Made by a program: the position numbers and the translations under genes
In this document: one piece after another, positions 16,919-49,654 of the stretch
Layout of the letters: each line of letters starts with the position of its first letter
Position numbering within the stretch: the first letter of the stretch is position 1
The notes under the pieces: generated by a model
Seen by the model: the letters and a program-made list of their open reading frames with translations, nothing else
Told to the model about the DNA's origin: nothing
The model's database searches: none
Assembly (NCBI GenBank): GCA_963815115.1
Contig: CAWFFN010000007.1
Span: forward strand, 1 to 64,000
DNA length: 64,000 bases
Direction: 5' to 3'
From: an uncultured delta proteobacterium
GTDB taxonomy: Bacteria > Desulfobacterota > Binatia > DP-6

Positions 16919-17044
16919 TCAGCCCGGCCCGAAGATGTTGTTGCCCAGAAGCACCCAGAGCAGGATCAGCAGTCCGATGGGAACGCCCATCATGTACAGC
17001 ACCAGGTAGCCGACCCTGCCACTCTCGTTGTCGTGGCGATCCAT
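16919..17044 (-). CDS. 41-aa single-TM small protein (not in ORF track)
   Basis: MDRHDNESGRVGYLVLYMMGVPIGLLILLWVLLGNNIFGPG; RBS AGGAGG; own sigma54 promoter. Confidence 0.75.
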   Translation of the reverse strand: MDRHDNESGRVGYLVLYMMGVPIGLLILLWVLLGNNIFGPG

Positions 17045-17091
17045 GTTTCGTCCCTCCTGCGGTGTCGTTGGCGAATCCTTTGCCTCGGATG

Positions 17092-17108
17092 AGCATGCCG
17101 TGTGCCAG
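17092..17108 (-). promoter_or_regulatory. sigma54 -24/-12 promoter
   Basis: CTGGCACACGGCATGCT. Confidence 0.7.
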
Positions 17109-44859: not shown

Positions 44860-44866
44860 ACGACCG

Positions 44867-46711
44867 ATGAGGCGTGCGCACGACATGCCATTCGGCGCCG
44901 CGCTCTGCGCGGATGGCGGCGTGGCGTTTCGCTTGTGGGCTCCGGGAGCCCGGCGGGTCGACGTGCGACTCGCCGGGAGCGCCGGCCGGCCGATCCCGAT
45001 GACCGGCCCGGACGCGGGCTGGTACGTCGCGCGCAGCGACACCGCCGGTGCCGGCACGCTCTACCAGTTCGTCATCGACGGCGAGCTCGCGGTGCCCGAC
45101 CCTGCGTCCCGCTTCCAGCCGCGTGACGTGCACGGCCCGAGCGAGGTCGTCGATCCCACCGCCTTCGACTGGCACGACACGGCGTGGCATGGACGCCCGT
45201 GGCACGAGAGCGTGCTCTACGAGCTCCACCTGGGCACGTTCACGCCCGCCGGAACGTATGGGGGGGCGGCCGCGCGCCTCGACTACCTGGCCGACCTCGG
45301 CATCACCGCGGTGGAGGTGATGCCGCTCGCCGAGTGCCCCGGGGCGCGCAACTGGGGCTACGACGGCGTGCTCCCGTTCGCGCCCGAGCACACCTACGGG
45401 CGACCCGAGGAGCTGAAGGCCTTCGTCCAGGCGGCGCACGATCGCGGCCTCATGGTCTTCGTCGACGTCGTCTACAATCACTTCGGTCCGGAGGGGAATC
45501 ATCTCCACCGCTATGCGCCGCAGTTCTTCACCGAGCGCCACGCCACCCCGTGGGGGGCGGCCATCGACTTCGACGGCCCGCACAGCCGCACGGTGCGCGA
45601 CTACTTCATCCACAATGCGCTCTACTGGATCGAGGAGTTTCACGTCGACGGGCTGCGCCTCGACGCCGTGCATGCGATCCACGACGACAGCAGGCCCGAC
45701 ATCCTCGCCGAGCTGGCGGCGGCCGTGCACGGCGCAGCGCCGGACCGCCGCGTGCATCTCGTGCTCGAGAACGACGACAACACGGCGCGATATCTCGAGC
45801 GCGACGCCGCCGGCAGGGCGCGGGCGTACGCGGCCCAGTGGAGCGACGACGTCCACCACGTCCTGCACGTGCTGACGACCGGAGAGACGGGCGGCTACTA
45901 CGCCGACCATGCCGCCGCGGCGCGTGCCCGGCTCGGCCGCACGCTCGCCGAGGGCTTCGACTACCAGGGCGAGCACTCGCCACACCGCGGCCGGCGCCGC
46001 GGGCAGCCGAGCGCCCACCTGCCGCCCACCGCCTTCGTCTCGTTCCTTCAGAACCACGATCAGATCGGCAATCGCGCCATGGGCGAGCGCATCGGTTCGC
46101 TGGCGCCGGCGGCGGCCCTTCGTGCCGCCGTCGCGATCGTGCTCCTGTCGCCCTCGATCCCGCTGCTCTTCATGGGGGAGGAGTGGAACGCGCCCGAGCC
46201 GTTCGTCTTCTTCTGCGACGTCGGACCGGAGCTGGCCGATGCGGTGCGAGAAGGCCGCCGGCGAGAGTTCGCGCACTTCCCGGAGTTCGCCGACGAGGCC
46301 GCACGAGCCCGGATTCCGGATCCGCTCGCGCTCGCGACGTACGAGAGCGCCAAGCTCGACTGGTCGCTGCTCTCCGAGCCCGCGCACGGCGCGTGGCTCG
46401 ATCACCATCGTGCGCTGCTGGCCATTCGCCGGCGCGAGATCGTGCCTCGCCTCGCGGGATTGGCGAGGGGCAACGCGGAGCACGCGGTGCACGGCGGCAA
46501 GGTCGTCGAGGTGCGCTGGCGGCTCCGGGAGGGCGCGGTGCTGCAGCTCCTCGCATGGCTCGGGGCGGAGCCCATCGACGGTCTGGCGCTGCGGCTCGCC
46601 GGACGCGCGCTCCACTCGACCGCGCCCGGCGTCGTCGCGGCCGGAGAGATTCACGCGCTGCCGCCGTGGTTCGTGAGCTTCTCGCTGGCGGCGCCCGCGG
46701 GGGCGGGGTGA
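44867..46711 (+). CDS. treZ: Malto-oligosyltrehalose trehalohydrolase
   Basis: FRLWAP, PDPASRFQP, NWGYDGV, DGLRLDAVHAI, QNHDQIGNR, LFMGEEW. Confidence 0.95.
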   Translation: MRRAHDMPFGAALCADGGVAFRLWAPGARRVDVRLAGSAGRPIPMTGPDAGWYVARSDTAGAGTLYQFVIDGELAVPDPASRFQPRDVHGPSEVVDPTAFDWHDTAWHGRPWHESVLYELHLGTFTPAGTYGGAAARLDYLADLGITAVEVMPLAECPGARNWGYDGVLPFAPEHTYGRPEELKAFVQAAHDRGLMVFVDVVYNHFGPEGNHLHRYAPQFFTERHATPWGAAIDFDGPHSRTVRDYFIHNALYWIEEFHVDGLRLDAVHAIHDDSRPDILAELAAAVHGAAPDRRVHLVLENDDNTARYLERDAAGRARAYAAQWSDDVHHVLHVLTTGETGGYYADHAAAARARLGRTLAEGFDYQGEHSPHRGRRRGQPSAHLPPTAFVSFLQNHDQIGNRAMGERIGSLAPAAALRAAVAIVLLSPSIPLLFMGEEWNAPEPFVFFCDVGPELADAVREGRRREFAHFPEFADEAARARIPDPLALATYESAKLDWSLLSEPAHGAWLDHHRALLAIRRREIVPRLAGLARGNAEHAVHGGKVVEVRWRLREGAVLQLLAWLGAEPIDGLALRLAGRALHSTAPGVVAAGEIHALPPWFVSFSLAAPAGAG

Positions 46712-49654
46712 CGGCGGATCTCGACGAGGCCGCGGCCTCCTCGTCGTCGAGCAGCCCGCGCTCCCGTTCCGAAGGAGCGGCGGGGGCAGCGAGCGGGCTG
46801 GCGCTCCCGCGCTCGACCTATCGCCTCCAGTTGAGTCCCCACTTCACGCTCCGGAACGCCCTCGACGCCGTTCCCTATCTCGACGCGCTCGGCATCAGCC
46901 ACGTCTATGCCTCGCCCTTCCTGAAGGCGCGCCCCGGCAGCGAGCACGGCTACGACATCACCGATCACAACGCTCTCAACCCGGAGATCGGCGACTGGGA
47001 CGACTTCGTACGCTTCAGCGATGCCCTGGGCGCCCGCGCGATGGGGCTGATTCTCGATTTCGTTCCCAACCACATGGGGATCGGCAAGGCGGACAACGCC
47101 TGGTGGCTGGACGTCCTCGAGTGGGGCAGGGCGTCGCCCTACAGCGACTACTTCGACATCGACTGGATGCCCGCGCAGCCGTGGCTGAGGGGCAGGGTGC
47201 TGCTTCCCATCCTCGGGGACCACTACGGCGTCGTCCTGACGCGCGGCGAGCTGACCCTCCGGTTCGCTGCCGAGGAGGGCACGCTCAGCGTCTGGTATCA
47301 CGACCACCGGCTGCCGCTGCGCCCCGGCTCGTACGCCGCCGTGATCCGGCGCGGCCTCGGAGCCGGGCGGGCCGGTGCCGACGGGGCCGAGTCCACCTTC
47401 GAGCGGATCGCACGTGATCTTGGTCGCGCCGACCGGCCGACCCGGCGGCGCGAGGAAGCGCACCGCCAGGTGGCGGCGCTCCAGGCCGATCTCGGCGCGC
47501 TCTGTGCCGGCCATGCCGAGGCGGCCCGGTTCATGGCCGACGCGACCGCTGCATTCAACGGCACCGCCGGCGATGCGGAGAGCTTCCGGGCGCTGCACGC
47601 GTTGCTCGAGCGCCAGCACTACCGGCTGGCCTTCTGGCGGGTCGGCGCCGACGAGATCAACTACCGGCGCTTCTTCAACATCAACGAGCTCGCCGGCATT
47701 CGCATGGAGAACCGCACGCTCTTCGACGCCGCACACCGCCTGCTCGGTCGCATGATCCGGGAAGGCCGCGTGCAGGGCATCCGACTCGACCACATCGACG
47801 GCTTGTTCGATCCCCGGGGCTACTGCCGCAAGCTGCAGGCGTTCGCACGGGCGAACGCCTCGCATGGCGATCCGGACGGACGGCGGCGATTCTACGTCGT
47901 GGTCGAGAAGATTCTCGCGCATCACGAGACGCTGCGATCGGACTGGGAGATTGCCGGCACGACGGGGTACGATTTCACGAGCCTGGTCAACGGTCTCTTC
48001 GTCGATCCCGCCAGCGAGAGCACCTGGGACCTGCTCTATCGCGACTTCGTCGGCGATCGGGGGCCGTTCCGGGACATGGTGCTGGCGGCCAAGGACACGG
48101 TGATCGAGACGCTGCTGTCGGGTGAGCTGAACGTCCTCGCCAACGCGCTCGAGCGCATCGCCGAACGGGACTGGGGCACGCGCGACTACACGATGAAGCG
48201 CCTGCGCGATGCGCTGAAGGCCGTCGTGTCGTACTTCCCCGTCTATCGCACGTACGTCAGCGAGCGCGAGACCTCGGCGGAGGATCGGCGCGACATCGAC
48301 TGGGCGGTCGAGCAGGCCCGGCGGAGCTGGCGCGGAGCCGACCGCGAGGTCCTGGACTTCGTGCACGACGCGCTCACCGGCGATCTCGCCGGGCGCGGGA
48401 AGTCGTTCCGGCGCAGCGAGGTGCTGCGCTTCGCCATGCGCTTCCAGCAGTACACCGGTCCGATCATGGCCAAATCGATGGAGGACACTGCCTTCTATCG
48501 CTATCCCCGTCTGCTCTCTCTCAACGAGGTGGGCAGCGATCCGCGGCAATTCGGGGTGTCGGTGGCGGCGTTCCACCATGCCAACCAGCAACGCGCGCGG
48601 GACTGGCCGCATTCGATGCTCACGACCGCCACCCACGACACCAAGCGGGGGGAGGATGCGCGGCTCCGCATCGATGCCCTGTCGGAGATGCCGGCGCAAT
48701 GGCGGCCGCGGCGTGCGGCGCTGGTCCGAGCTCGCCCGTTCCGTGCGGCGCGAGATCGAGGGCTCGCCCGCGCCGTCGCCGGTCGACGAGTTCATGATCT
48801 ACCAGACGTTGCTCGGCGCATGGCCCGTGGAGCTCCTCGGTGGATCGCCGGATCGTGCGGCGCTCGCCGGCTTTCTCGCCCGGATCGAGCGCTACGTGAT
48901 CAAGGCGGTGCGCGAGGCCAAGGTCGTGAGCAGCTGGGAGAATCCCGCGGAGGCGTACGAGGCGGCCTGCATCGGGTTCGTGCGCGGTATCTTGAACCCG
49001 GCCCATCCCGTCCTGGCCGATCTCTCCGGGTTTGCCGAGCGGGTCGCGTTCGTCGGCATGCTGAGCGGACTCGCGCAGCTCGTGCTGCGGCTGACCGCCC
49101 CCGGGGTTGCCGACACGTATCAGGGCACCGAGCTGTGGGACCTGAGCCTCGTCGACCCCGACAACCGCGCGCCGGTCGACTTCGCCGCACGAAGCCGGCT
49201 GCTGGAGGAGCAGCAGCCGGCCGCGAGCGTGGAGGAGGTGAGCGCTGCGCTCGCGACCTGGTCGGACGGCCGGATCAAGATGCTGGTCCTGCATCGGCTG
49301 CTTCGGCTGCGCCGTCGCCTGGCCGAGGTCTGGCTGGAGGGGAGCTACGACTCGCTCGCCACCTCCGGCGCGCACGCGGACCGCCTCGTGGCCTTCGCCC
49401 GACGGCATGGCGCCGAGCGCATCGTCGTCGTCGCGGGGCGGCTGTTCGGCACGCTCCTGGCGACCGATGCGCGTCGCTATGACGGGAGCGTGTGGGAGGA
49501 CAGTGCGGTCGTGCGGGAGCCGGATCTCGTCGGCACCTGGCAGGACACCCTCACCGGCGCGCCGGTCGAGTTCGCGGAGGGCGGCTCCGGCCTGCCCGCG
49601 GCCGGGGTCCTGTCCGTGCTGCCGGTCGCGGTGCTGGTGCGCGGGCTGGAGTGA
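46708..49654 (+). CDS. treY: Malto-oligosyltrehalose synthase, frameshift near 48700
   Basis: PRSTYRLQ, HGYD, DFVPNHMG, NYRRFF, RLDHIDGL, VVEKIL, THDTKRGED, YQGTE, LVDPDNR. Confidence 0.93.

Follow-up and report, generated by a model that had tools for sequence, protein, structure and literature searches.

A candidate sigma-54-dependent stress-protection regulon in a Candidatus Binatia bacterium

General stress responses are, in textbook accounts, controlled by sigma factor replacement, and the known general stress regulons belong to RpoS in enterobacteria, SigB in Bacillus, and EcfG/PhyR/NepR in Alphaproteobacteria. A block of ~33 kb (positions 16919–49654) from an uncultured soil bacterium, a Candidatus Binatia, raises the question of whether output of the same kind can be placed under the control of sigma-54 and an ATPase activator instead. 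The block lies in the 64-kb stretch of DNA analyzed here (the window), which forms the start of contig C7 in a 12-contig assembly of 6.89 Mb with 70% G+C. A sequence-only reading of the window had pointed to GG-N10-GC promoters ahead of many of its genes, to two sigma-54 activators, and to gene families typical of general stress regulons, and had proposed that this stress output is wired to RpoN.

Our analysis suggests, with moderate confidence, that the block is a sigma-54-dependent stress-protection regulon that works as follows. About 15 transcription units would each be read from their own -24/-12 promoter, and their products would include small membrane proteins, CsbD, DUF1328, BON, YflT, YtxH, YqjD/E-type, DUF6496, SodC, and Ku proteins, together with a single-domain response regulator, a hybrid kinase, and possibly the products of treZ and treY. 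Activator 2, in its phosphorylated form, would bind the element TTGTA(C/G)AA upstream of these promoters and open sigma-54 closed complexes through ATP hydrolysis. Its input would be a phosphorelay rather than a simple kinase, with a HisKA-only partner that appears to keep the phospho-histidine helix and to have lost a recognizable ATP-binding domain. Activator 1, once induced, would need no phosphorylation to hold the regulon in the on state, acting as positive feedback or a lock. The inducing signal would probably be drying, osmotic stress, or growth arrest. We infer the binder of the element, the order of the relay, and the feedback from the sequence. On the same evidence the regulon is real, conserved, and defined by its element, a variant of an NtrC-type regulon, and it is plausibly the general stress response of the organism.

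Sigma-54 sites and a shared upstream element

Sigma-54 sites were scored with a 16-position matrix built from the consensus TGGCACG-N4-TTGCW and not fitted to this genome. Genes were called with a simple, crude codon-usage scorer trained on long open reading frames (ORFs) and named from Pfam and NCBIfam matches. The GG-N10-GC word is present in the proposed orientation at all 16 positions of the sequence-only reading, which had listed 15 promoters and one weak site at 20147; plus-strand coordinates in that reading (22611, 25937, 36258, 36732, 39474, and 42450) run one base below those used here. At 13 of the 16 positions the score reaches 11 bits or more (range 11.1–19.4). Two of the proposed promoters, 18861 (9.1 bits) and 36258 (9.4 bits), are weak, and the site at 20147 is not among the matches of at least 9 bits, with a better site for the same BON gene at 20218–20233 on the minus strand (14.8 bits). 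This site and another at 18738–18753 on the minus strand (11.5 bits) are stronger and had been missed. Within the window, the exact word TGGCAYN6TGC occurs 8 times, compared with 0.95 ± 1.11 times in 100 shuffles (largest count 5), and 54 copies with one mismatch are found, compared with 30.2 ± 6.8, a count that none of the 100 shuffles reaches.

Across the genome, 115 sites score at least 15 bits. Although called coding sequence makes up 86% of the genome, 101 of these sites are intergenic, and 80 are directed at a called gene start within 250 nt; the matrix acts as a promoter detector genome-wide. The consensus of 90 independent genome sites fits the extended sigma-54 consensus TGGCAC-N5-TTGCW, with GG and GC exactly 10 nt apart. 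A 33-kb window of the genome contains on average 0.92 oriented sites of 11 bits or more, compared with 13 in the block, which bears out the proposed enrichment over background. The genome maximum of 14 sites per 33 kb is found in windows that overlap the block, and the best window elsewhere holds 10, making the block the densest cluster of sigma-54 sites in the 6.9-Mb genome. Sites 25938 and 42451 went unflagged by the gene caller because it missed the small ORFs behind the first and misplaced the kinase start behind the second. The genome encodes a single copy of RpoN (one Sigma54_DBD match, 208 bits) and about 40–48 sigma-54 activators (48 matches, or 40 by tblastn). This RpoN shares 81–86% identity with RpoN proteins of metagenome-assembled genomes labeled Candidatus Binatia, uncultured delta proteobacterium, or Thermodesulfobacteriota.

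Reading the 220 nt upstream of every block promoter revealed the element TTGTA(C/G)AA. The octamer TTGTASAA is found in seven places in the window against 0.13 expected, all seven of them inside the block. The form TTGTA[CG]A[AG] lies 25–140 nt upstream of 10 of the 13 block promoters, compared with 2 of the 183 oriented sites elsewhere in the genome that reach 11 bits (Fisher p 1e-12, including a copy upstream of promoter 17611 that is probably coincidental). The element is located 43–100 nt upstream of the block promoters, and its distances to the GG (43–46, 53, 67–70, 77–78, and 87–88 nt) have a period of 10.5–11.5 bp, following the helical repeat (Rayleigh R 0.60–0.68, p 0.003–0.01, n = 12, nine periods tried). 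Eleven distances from relatives, which are kin, give R of 0.76–0.84. Looping by an upstream activator would be expected to impose this kind of spacing along one face of the helix. The element and a promoter are also found together ahead of the topoisomerase IB gene, less clearly ahead of a GDSL lipase gene, and ahead of a paralog of p144, a protein of the block, on contig C12. Next to this paralog are a CHASE3-PAS hybrid kinase and a second DUF1328 gene, the latter behind an 18.9-bit site of its own. Octamers outside the block lie at C12:527326 and C7:683160.

We searched 30 relatives (18 from the same family and 12 from the same class) and compared 12 loci with activator-2-like genes, which are 72–81% identical to activator 2 in six loci of five other genera and 46–63% identical in the remaining loci. 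Genes for p144, holin-X, p64, p67, p79, YtxH, CsbD, BON, YflT, DUF1328, p256, and the response regulator recur beside them. The promoter conservation ahead of orthologs that the sequence-only reading would lead one to expect is found in these genomes. Sites of at least 11 bits lie ahead of DUF1328 in 6 of 6 loci (18.9–19.4 bits), ahead of p144 in 8 of 9 (with the element in 6 loci), and ahead of the response regulator in both loci that have it (L049 and L050), where the element is also kept. For CsbD this is true of one locus in four, and the rest lie inside operons or have weaker sites. The p174 site is identical in a locus from the same genus (L054). Alignments upstream of p144 show that only the promoter and the word GTTGTA(C/G)AAA are constant, the remaining DNA having diverged, and the DUF1328 promoters of relatives contain two TTACA/TACAA half-sites about two turns apart. 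Orthologs of the block's Ku protein (62–88% identity; five genera, one in another family) have an upstream site of at least 11 bits in 7 of 7 cases, four within 44 nt and three at ~305 nt (all within about 320 nt), and a promoter-to-ku spacing of 9–12 nt is kept in three relatives. A second Ku type (34–41% identity) is a natural control for this promoter: none of its 21 copies has a site of at least 9 bits within 260 nt.

Two sigma-54 activators and a putative phosphorelay

Pfam confirms that two sigma-54 activators are encoded inside the block. Activator 2 (37386–38744, minus strand) has the NtrC-type architecture, with a receiver (Response_reg, 3.7e-24), an AAA+ domain with a GSFTGA loop (Sigma54_activat, 1.4e-68), and a Fis-type helix-turn-helix (HTH) (HTH_8, 1.9e-11). 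It falls under every NCBIfam equivalog cut-off (NtrC, AtoC, ZraR, GlrR, LuxO, FlbD, and the PEP-CTERM regulator), scoring 411.8 against 558.6 for NtrC, 408.7 against 714 for AtoC, and 326.8 against 760 for ZraR. Activator 1 (17682–18710, minus strand) consists of AAA+ (Sigma54_activat, 2.8e-63) and HTH_8 regions and has no receiver. Its start is most likely the ATG at 18710, which stands behind a GGAAGG ribosome-binding word, gives a protein of 342 aa, and leaves ~25 residues before the AAA+ domain. The two activators are 59% identical over their AAA+ and HTH regions, both carry the GSFTGA loop and the stretch GISLKTLYNRLN, and their recognition helices are nearly identical (GISLKTLYNRLNLYKR vs. 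GISLKTLYNRLNVYKR). No ortholog of activator 1 was found in the 30 relatives, where its best matches are orthologs of activator 2. We read activator 1 as what may be a lineage-specific, signal-independent amplifier of the same regulon.

The HisKA-only protein (210 aa; 38737–39369, minus strand) is encoded upstream of activator 2, with which its gene overlaps by 8 nt. Its HisKA match of 26.7 bits is just under the cut-off of 26.9, and no HATPase_c match is found in it at E values up to 5. Orthologs of 186–221 aa conserve the H-box and, in our own reading of the alignment, appear to lack the N, G1, and G2 boxes, while two more distant loci have full-size kinases in the same position. The hybrid kinase of the block is a membrane protein with PAS-PAS-HisKA-HATPase-receiver domains (from Pfam; the start and the N-terminal hydrophobic stretch were read from the sequence), and it and a free receiver protein are both found behind sigma-54 promoters. 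Because the HisKA-only protein appears to lack a recognizable ATP domain, and because a hybrid kinase and a free receiver are both behind sigma-54 promoters, we infer a phosphorelay in which the HisKA-only protein would act like Spo0B or ChpT.

Transcription units of the block

The general-stress gene families named in the sequence-only reading agree with Pfam, which in the block supports CsbD, DUF1328, BON, YflT, YtxH, a holin-X/YqjE-type protein, SodC, Ku, LigD, and GlgX/TreZ-type amylases. At the left end of the block, promoter 17092–17107 (minus strand; TGGCACACGGCATGCT, 16.4 bits) is 47 nt ahead of the start of a gene for a 41-aa membrane peptide (16919–17044, minus strand). Promoter 17611–17626 (minus strand, 16.6 bits) is 20 nt ahead of the called start of DUF6496 gene a (17357–17590, minus strand; Pfam DUF6496, E 1.2e-25). 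The octamers upstream of it sit within the 3′ end of the gene for activator 1, where they encode LYNRL, and because every activator-2 ortholog has the same word in the same place, the octamer there is probably a coding coincidence. The weak sigma-54-type site 18738–18753 (minus strand; TGGCCCGCGGTCTGCA) is ahead of activator 1, with an element (TTGTAGAA, 18837–18844) centered 88 nt upstream. Promoter 20218–20233 is 82 nt ahead of the BON gene (19698–20135), which is followed by the YflT gene (19156–19680; both minus strand, Pfam), and the element TTGTACAA at 20316–20323 is centered 87 nt upstream of it.

Divergent promoters at 22509–22524 (minus strand, 13.7 bits) and 22612–22627 (plus strand, 15.3 bits) serve the genes for DUF748 (20364–22499, minus strand) and Ku (22637–23464, plus strand). 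The pair has a common element at 22565–22572, 45 and 44 nt from the respective GGs. In ku and DUF748 the ATG follows exactly 10 nt after the -12 GC, a spacing that implies leaderless mRNAs; in the response regulator and p174 it follows after 14–15 nt (26719–26749 and 36110–36139), and the sigma-54 transcripts of these four genes would be leaderless or nearly so. Promoter 25674–25689 (minus strand, 16.3 bits) is 43 nt ahead of the start of the genes for DUF6496b, cytochrome c, a CBS protein, and SodC (25630 down to 23472), which would form an operon given their shared strand and short gaps, and a variant element (ATTGAACAAA) lies 43 nt upstream of the promoter. Promoter 25938–25953 (plus strand, 12.9 bits) precedes two small plus-strand ORFs read from the sequence, one of 22 aa (25978–26046) with a sub-threshold likeness to the end of DUF3309 (Pfam, E 0.014) and one of 48 aa that is rich in Cys and His (26051–26197). 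A metallothionein assignment for the latter is unsupported (Pfam Metallothio_Pro, E 4.1).

The single-domain response regulator (26336–26719, minus strand; Response_reg, 4e-19) follows promoter 26734–26749 (minus strand, 15.3 bits), and another copy of TTGTACAA is located 46 nt upstream, at 26791–26798. Promoter 34218–34233 (minus strand, 15.1 bits) is ahead of the genes for a holin-X/YqjE-type protein, p64, p79, and YtxH (down to 33131), of which the first (Phage_holin_3_6) and YtxH have Pfam support; a variant element (AACGTACAAA) lies 67 nt upstream. The gene for a 43-aa membrane peptide (34344–34475, minus strand) has its promoter at 34521–34536 (15.3 bits) and an element (TTGTAGAA, 34602–34609) 70 nt further upstream. 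Tiny hydrophobic peptides of 41, 22, and 43 aa are each preceded by a sigma-54 promoter. A second divergent pair comprises promoter 36124–36139 (minus strand, 11.1 bits), for p174 and p256 (down to 34774), and the weak site 36259–36274 (plus strand), for CsbD (36314–36526, plus strand; Pfam, 6.5e-20). The element common to this pair (CTCTACAA, 36188–36195) is 53 and 68 nt from the two GGs. The DUF1328 (YtjA-type) gene (36775–36954, plus strand) has a promoter at 36733–36748 that, at 19.4 bits, is among the five top-scoring sites of the genome (19.4–19.5 bits), and its element is at 36652–36659.

Promoter 39475–39490 (plus strand, 16.1 bits), with the element TTGTAGAA at 39395–39402, 77 nt upstream, is ahead of p144 (39520–39954) and p67 (unit to 40207). 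p67 is a short protein with a hydrophobic C-terminal segment that matched no family and in our own reading may resemble DUF883/ElaB. p144, the best conserved of the targets, has no Pfam or NCBIfam family, and the protein atlas shows only Binatota hypothetical clusters, so that by atlas listing the family is Binatota-specific. The genome contains ~16 paralogs of p144, about half of them with sigma-54 sites. AlphaFold modeling on 12 sequences gave a helical bundle with a mean pLDDT of 72.9 and a confidently helical core. A Foldseek search of this fold against the PDB returned nothing at E ≤ 0.001, and the best VIA-align Z score, 5.4, is in the noise range for helical proteins; that residues 88–109 are HTH-like is a guess only.

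The last promoter of the block, 42451–42466 (plus strand, 14.7 bits), is ahead of the hybrid kinase, whose start is the ATG at 42585. TreZ-type (44885–46711) and TreY-type (46711–49654) genes lie downstream of it on the plus strand (Pfam); they could be reached only via read-through from the kinase promoter, from which they would be co-transcribed. The coding frame changes within the hybrid kinase gene at ~43970–44190 (between HisKA and HATPase_c plus receiver) and within the TreY-type gene at ~48600–48740, as it also does in the topoisomerase IB gene (C7:681926–683014). These frame changes are most likely single-base assembly errors, and otherwise pseudogenes.

Outside the block, the window contains two strong sigma-54 sites, 7441–7456 (minus strand, 16.6 bits) and 12368–12383 (plus strand, 16.1 bits), that precede genes at 7005–7355 and 12434–13192, have no TTGTA(C/G)AA, and probably belong to other regulons. 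Positions 1187–14921 of the window match the 21-kb contig C6 (C6:794–14522) at 99.0% identity, with divergence at 14921, ~2 kb short of the block. Two explanations would fit this match, a variant strain within the assembly and a large repeat; further small contigs match large contigs at 98–99%.

Alternative explanations and related systems

No protein of this genome passes the cut-offs of the models for stress sigma factors, with a best score of 296.5 against 378.7 on rpoS_proteo and of 135.6 against 234.35 on SigBFG. NepR has no match in the genome, nor does DUF892 (YciE/F). The absence of rpoS, sigB, and NepR that the proposed design implies is thus seen at the level of these cut-offs, with four RpoD-like paralogs present that score 239–296 bits on rpoS_proteo. 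A second cluster of ~ten sigma-54 sites is found at C5:24–75 kb. Its sites precede genes for rubrerythrin, a triple-BON (OsmY-like) protein with Usp, HSP20, a ribosome hibernation factor, adenosine kinase, an M50-CBS protease, DJ-1/PfpI, TerB, and an isoaspartyl methyltransferase–erythromycin esterase fusion; many Usp genes are located near this cluster. Counted over transcription units in the genome, sites precede 4 of 6 for HSP20 (three of the genes being in one operon), 5 of 8 for BON, and 2 of 16 for Usp, a total of 11 of 30 compared with 108 of 1500 random genes. A paralogous operon at C9:1491700–1493794 encodes CsbD and p144/holin-X/p64/p67/p79/YtxH-like (YqjD/YqjE-type) proteins, and the palindrome upstream of its CsbD gene (CGTACGTGGTTCCACGTACG) is possibly the operator of another regulator.

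Several observations weigh against a sigma-54 regulon of the kind proposed here. No site of even 4 bits is found ahead of ligD, glgX, the UDG gene, the FAD oxidoreductase gene, p136, p187, treZ, or the activator-2 operon, and for glgX the minus strand of 42370–42520 contains no sigma-54 site. The site ahead of activator 1, at 18738, has a C where 96% of strong sites have an A, the octamer at 42533–42540 is downstream of promoter 42451 rather than upstream, and the strong promoters 17092, 25674, and 34218 have no exact copy of the element. The copies within activator 1 are, as noted, probably a coding coincidence. Because the element was defined on the block, its count there is partly circular, and the non-circular evidence consists of its rarity elsewhere and its conservation in relatives, which are kin and not independent samples; the test of its spacing tried several periods. 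The element is also a single short site that could bind another protein instead, whereas well-studied NtrC-type activators use paired sites of 16–18 bp. Elsewhere in the genome, the C5 cluster has no nearby activator gene and no shared upstream element by eye or by k-mer counts, the CsbD operon on C9 and 14 of 16 Usp genes have no sigma-54 site, and the four RpoD-like (group 2) paralogs could include a stress sigma factor. The wiring of stress output to RpoN and an activator is a claim that stands in part: site statistics, the shared element, conservation, the single rpoN, the many activators, the lack of any rpoS_proteo, SigBFG, or NepR match above cut-off, and the C5 cluster speak for it, and it does not extend to ligD and glgX, to treZ and treY except by read-through, or to the C9 operon and most Usp genes.

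These observations bear on three other explanations. One, which we consider rather unlikely, is that the sigma-54 promoters are real and serve one local regulon for envelope, osmotic, or drying stress, like Psp or Zra, with the general response run otherwise, for example by an RpoD-like paralog or an extracytoplasmic function (ECF) sigma factor. The 40–48 activators and well over 100 good sites imply that sigma-54 serves many purposes here, and the RpoD-like genes, the C9 operon with its different palindrome, and the site-less ligD, glgX, and Usp genes would all fit such an arrangement. However, the output of the block mixes envelope, DNA-repair, oxidative, osmotic, and regulator genes, the C5 cluster covers HSP20, a hibernation factor, DJ-1, a protein-repair enzyme, and an OsmY-like protein, and no canonical stress sigma factor scores above cut-off. 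It is improbable, in our judgment, that TTGTA(C/G)AA is instead the site of a DNA-bending protein, repressor, or co-regulator while another, possibly distant, activator acts. The element is short, single, AT-rich, and often 43–55 nt from the GG, the usual range for bending proteins; it is missing from the C5 cluster despite the sigma-54 sites there, and the DUF1328 promoters of relatives arrange their TTACA/TACAA half-sites differently, in pairs. A general bending site would be expected at many sigma-54 promoters, however, and not at 2 of 183 outside the block. Moreover, the element travels with the activator-2 ortholog across genera, and a Myxococcota locus with the same recognition helix shows TTGTA-N5-TACAA ahead of its DUF1328 promoter. 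The explanation that the GG-N10-GC words arise by chance from a G+C content of 70%, or serve a different sigma factor, has very little left to recommend it. Although ~30 one-mismatch matches are expected per window in such GC-rich DNA, the 8 occurrences of the exact word against 0.95 expected, the intergenic position (101 of 115) and correct orientation (80) of strong sites, the retention of site positions ahead of orthologs while the flanks diverge, and the fit of the extended consensus to sigma-54 all contradict it.

A sigma-54 stress-protection regulon of this kind resembles the NtrB/NtrC (glnAp2), ZraS/ZraR–zraP, and AtoS/AtoC systems in the architecture of activator 2, in an upstream site on a fixed face of the helix, in -24/-12 promoters, and in the placement of the activator beside its targets. 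It differs from them in that the partner "kinase" appears to have no recognizable ATP-binding domain, the element is a single octamer, activator 2 is below all of their equivalog cut-offs, and the output is of the stress type rather than nitrogen, zinc, or acetoacetate genes. PspF of Escherichia coli, which serves the sigma-54 phage-shock stress response, consists of AAA+ and HTH regions without an N-terminal regulatory domain, as does activator 1. In contrast to PspF, activator 1 is a recent paralog of an activator that contains a receiver, its control seems to run through its own promoter, and on the PspF model TIGR02974 it scores 260.3, below the cut-off of 443.55. With the RpoS, SigB, and EcfG regulons the block and the C5 cluster share output families (CsbD/YjbJ, DUF1328/YtjA, BON/OsmY, YqjD/E-type, YtxH, YflT, HSP20, hibernation factor, and Ku). 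What sets the present case apart is its -24/-12 promoters, which depend on an ATPase activator, and a genome in which no protein passes the RpoS, SigB, or NepR model; control would be exerted through the activity of the activator, not the availability of a sigma factor. In the Rrp2-RpoN-RpoS cascade of Borrelia burgdorferi, a receiver-containing sigma-54 activator likewise stands atop a stress and adaptation program. There, sigma-54 drives only rpoS, which reads the output promoters, whereas here the output genes themselves carry sigma-54 promoters.

Our full-text searches on sigma-54 or RpoN with these stress genes found no such regulon in the titles and abstracts covered. The words sigma and RpoN have 0 occurrences in the Binatota genome paper, as do CsbD, osmY, trehalose, and desiccation in Francke et al. 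2011; the available part of the Geobacter RpoN regulon paper states that no RpoN elements were found for stress genes, and RpoS is named as master over the general response to stress in the available part of PMC5437024. The closest likeness comes from the accessible part of PMC4641369, where, in a table, the small regulon of DVU3305 in Desulfovibrio vulgaris carries the label "General stress response, transmembrane transport". Here too a two-component sigma-54 activator is tied to stress genes, and its lineage and Binatia were at one time both placed in the Deltaproteobacteria. It differs in comprising two operons that adjoin the regulator, and CsbD, DUF1328, and BON occur 0 times in the text of PMC4641369.

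DUF1328 also links the block to other phyla. We scanned one genome per species for a sigma-54 word followed after 15–45 nt by an ATG and a DUF1328-like N terminus and found at least 119 stretches; by our own rough estimate, chance could supply a few tens of such matches among all DUF1328 genes. Among the 119 matches listed, 107 encode DUF1328-like peptides, and 92 of these 107 have A or T at the free position that follows the GC, a feature of real sigma-54 promoters. The listed matches come from Acidobacteriota (many of them Bryobacteraceae), Myxococcota, Verrucomicrobiota, Planctomycetota, Bdellovibrionota, Bacteroidota, Alpha-, Beta-, and Gammaproteobacteria, and Binatia. Their sigma-54-type promoters stand 22–44 nt ahead of the DUF1328 genes, and an NtrC-type activator is frequently encoded a few kb away or closer; among the 119 listed 8-kb loci, 41 encode an NtrC-type activator and 12 encode CsbD. 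Loci from Kofleriaceae and Polyangiales place a receiver-containing activator beside DUF1328 in a very regular layout, and in the Myxococcota locus mentioned above the activator is 55% identical to activator 2. Across 105 DUF1328 promoters from many phyla, we found no shared upstream k-mer and only AT-richness; TGTAA/TTACA occurs in 29 of the 105 and in 5 of a control set rich in coding sequence, an unfair comparison. Together with the literature, the scan suggests that the sigma-54 DUF1328 pattern is general and not yet described.

We tentatively raise the possibility, which we regard as less than even, that sigma-54 with an NtrC-type phosphorelay is a fourth widespread design for general stress or dormancy responses, beside RpoS, SigB, and EcfG. 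An activator beside a sigma-54-driven DUF1328 gene would be its ancient core, with a range that takes in Acidobacteriota, Myxococcota, Verrucomicrobiota, Bdellovibrionota, and Proteobacteria. In Binatia this core would have expanded to dozens of promoters, including that of ku end-joining repair and some that give leaderless mRNAs, and would have gained a receiver-less activator paralog that locks the response on.

If the sigma-54 version is true, polymerase waits in a closed complex at each promoter and an ATPase decides whether it fires, and therefore basal expression would be very tight and the switch would depend on phosphorylation and ATP. Such a design would bear on how slow-growing soil bacteria enter and exit dormancy. 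The uncultured Binatia would gain a predicted regulator, a DNA element, and a list of targets, and the uncharacterized small proteins DUF1328, DUF6496, and the p144 family would gain a regulatory context.

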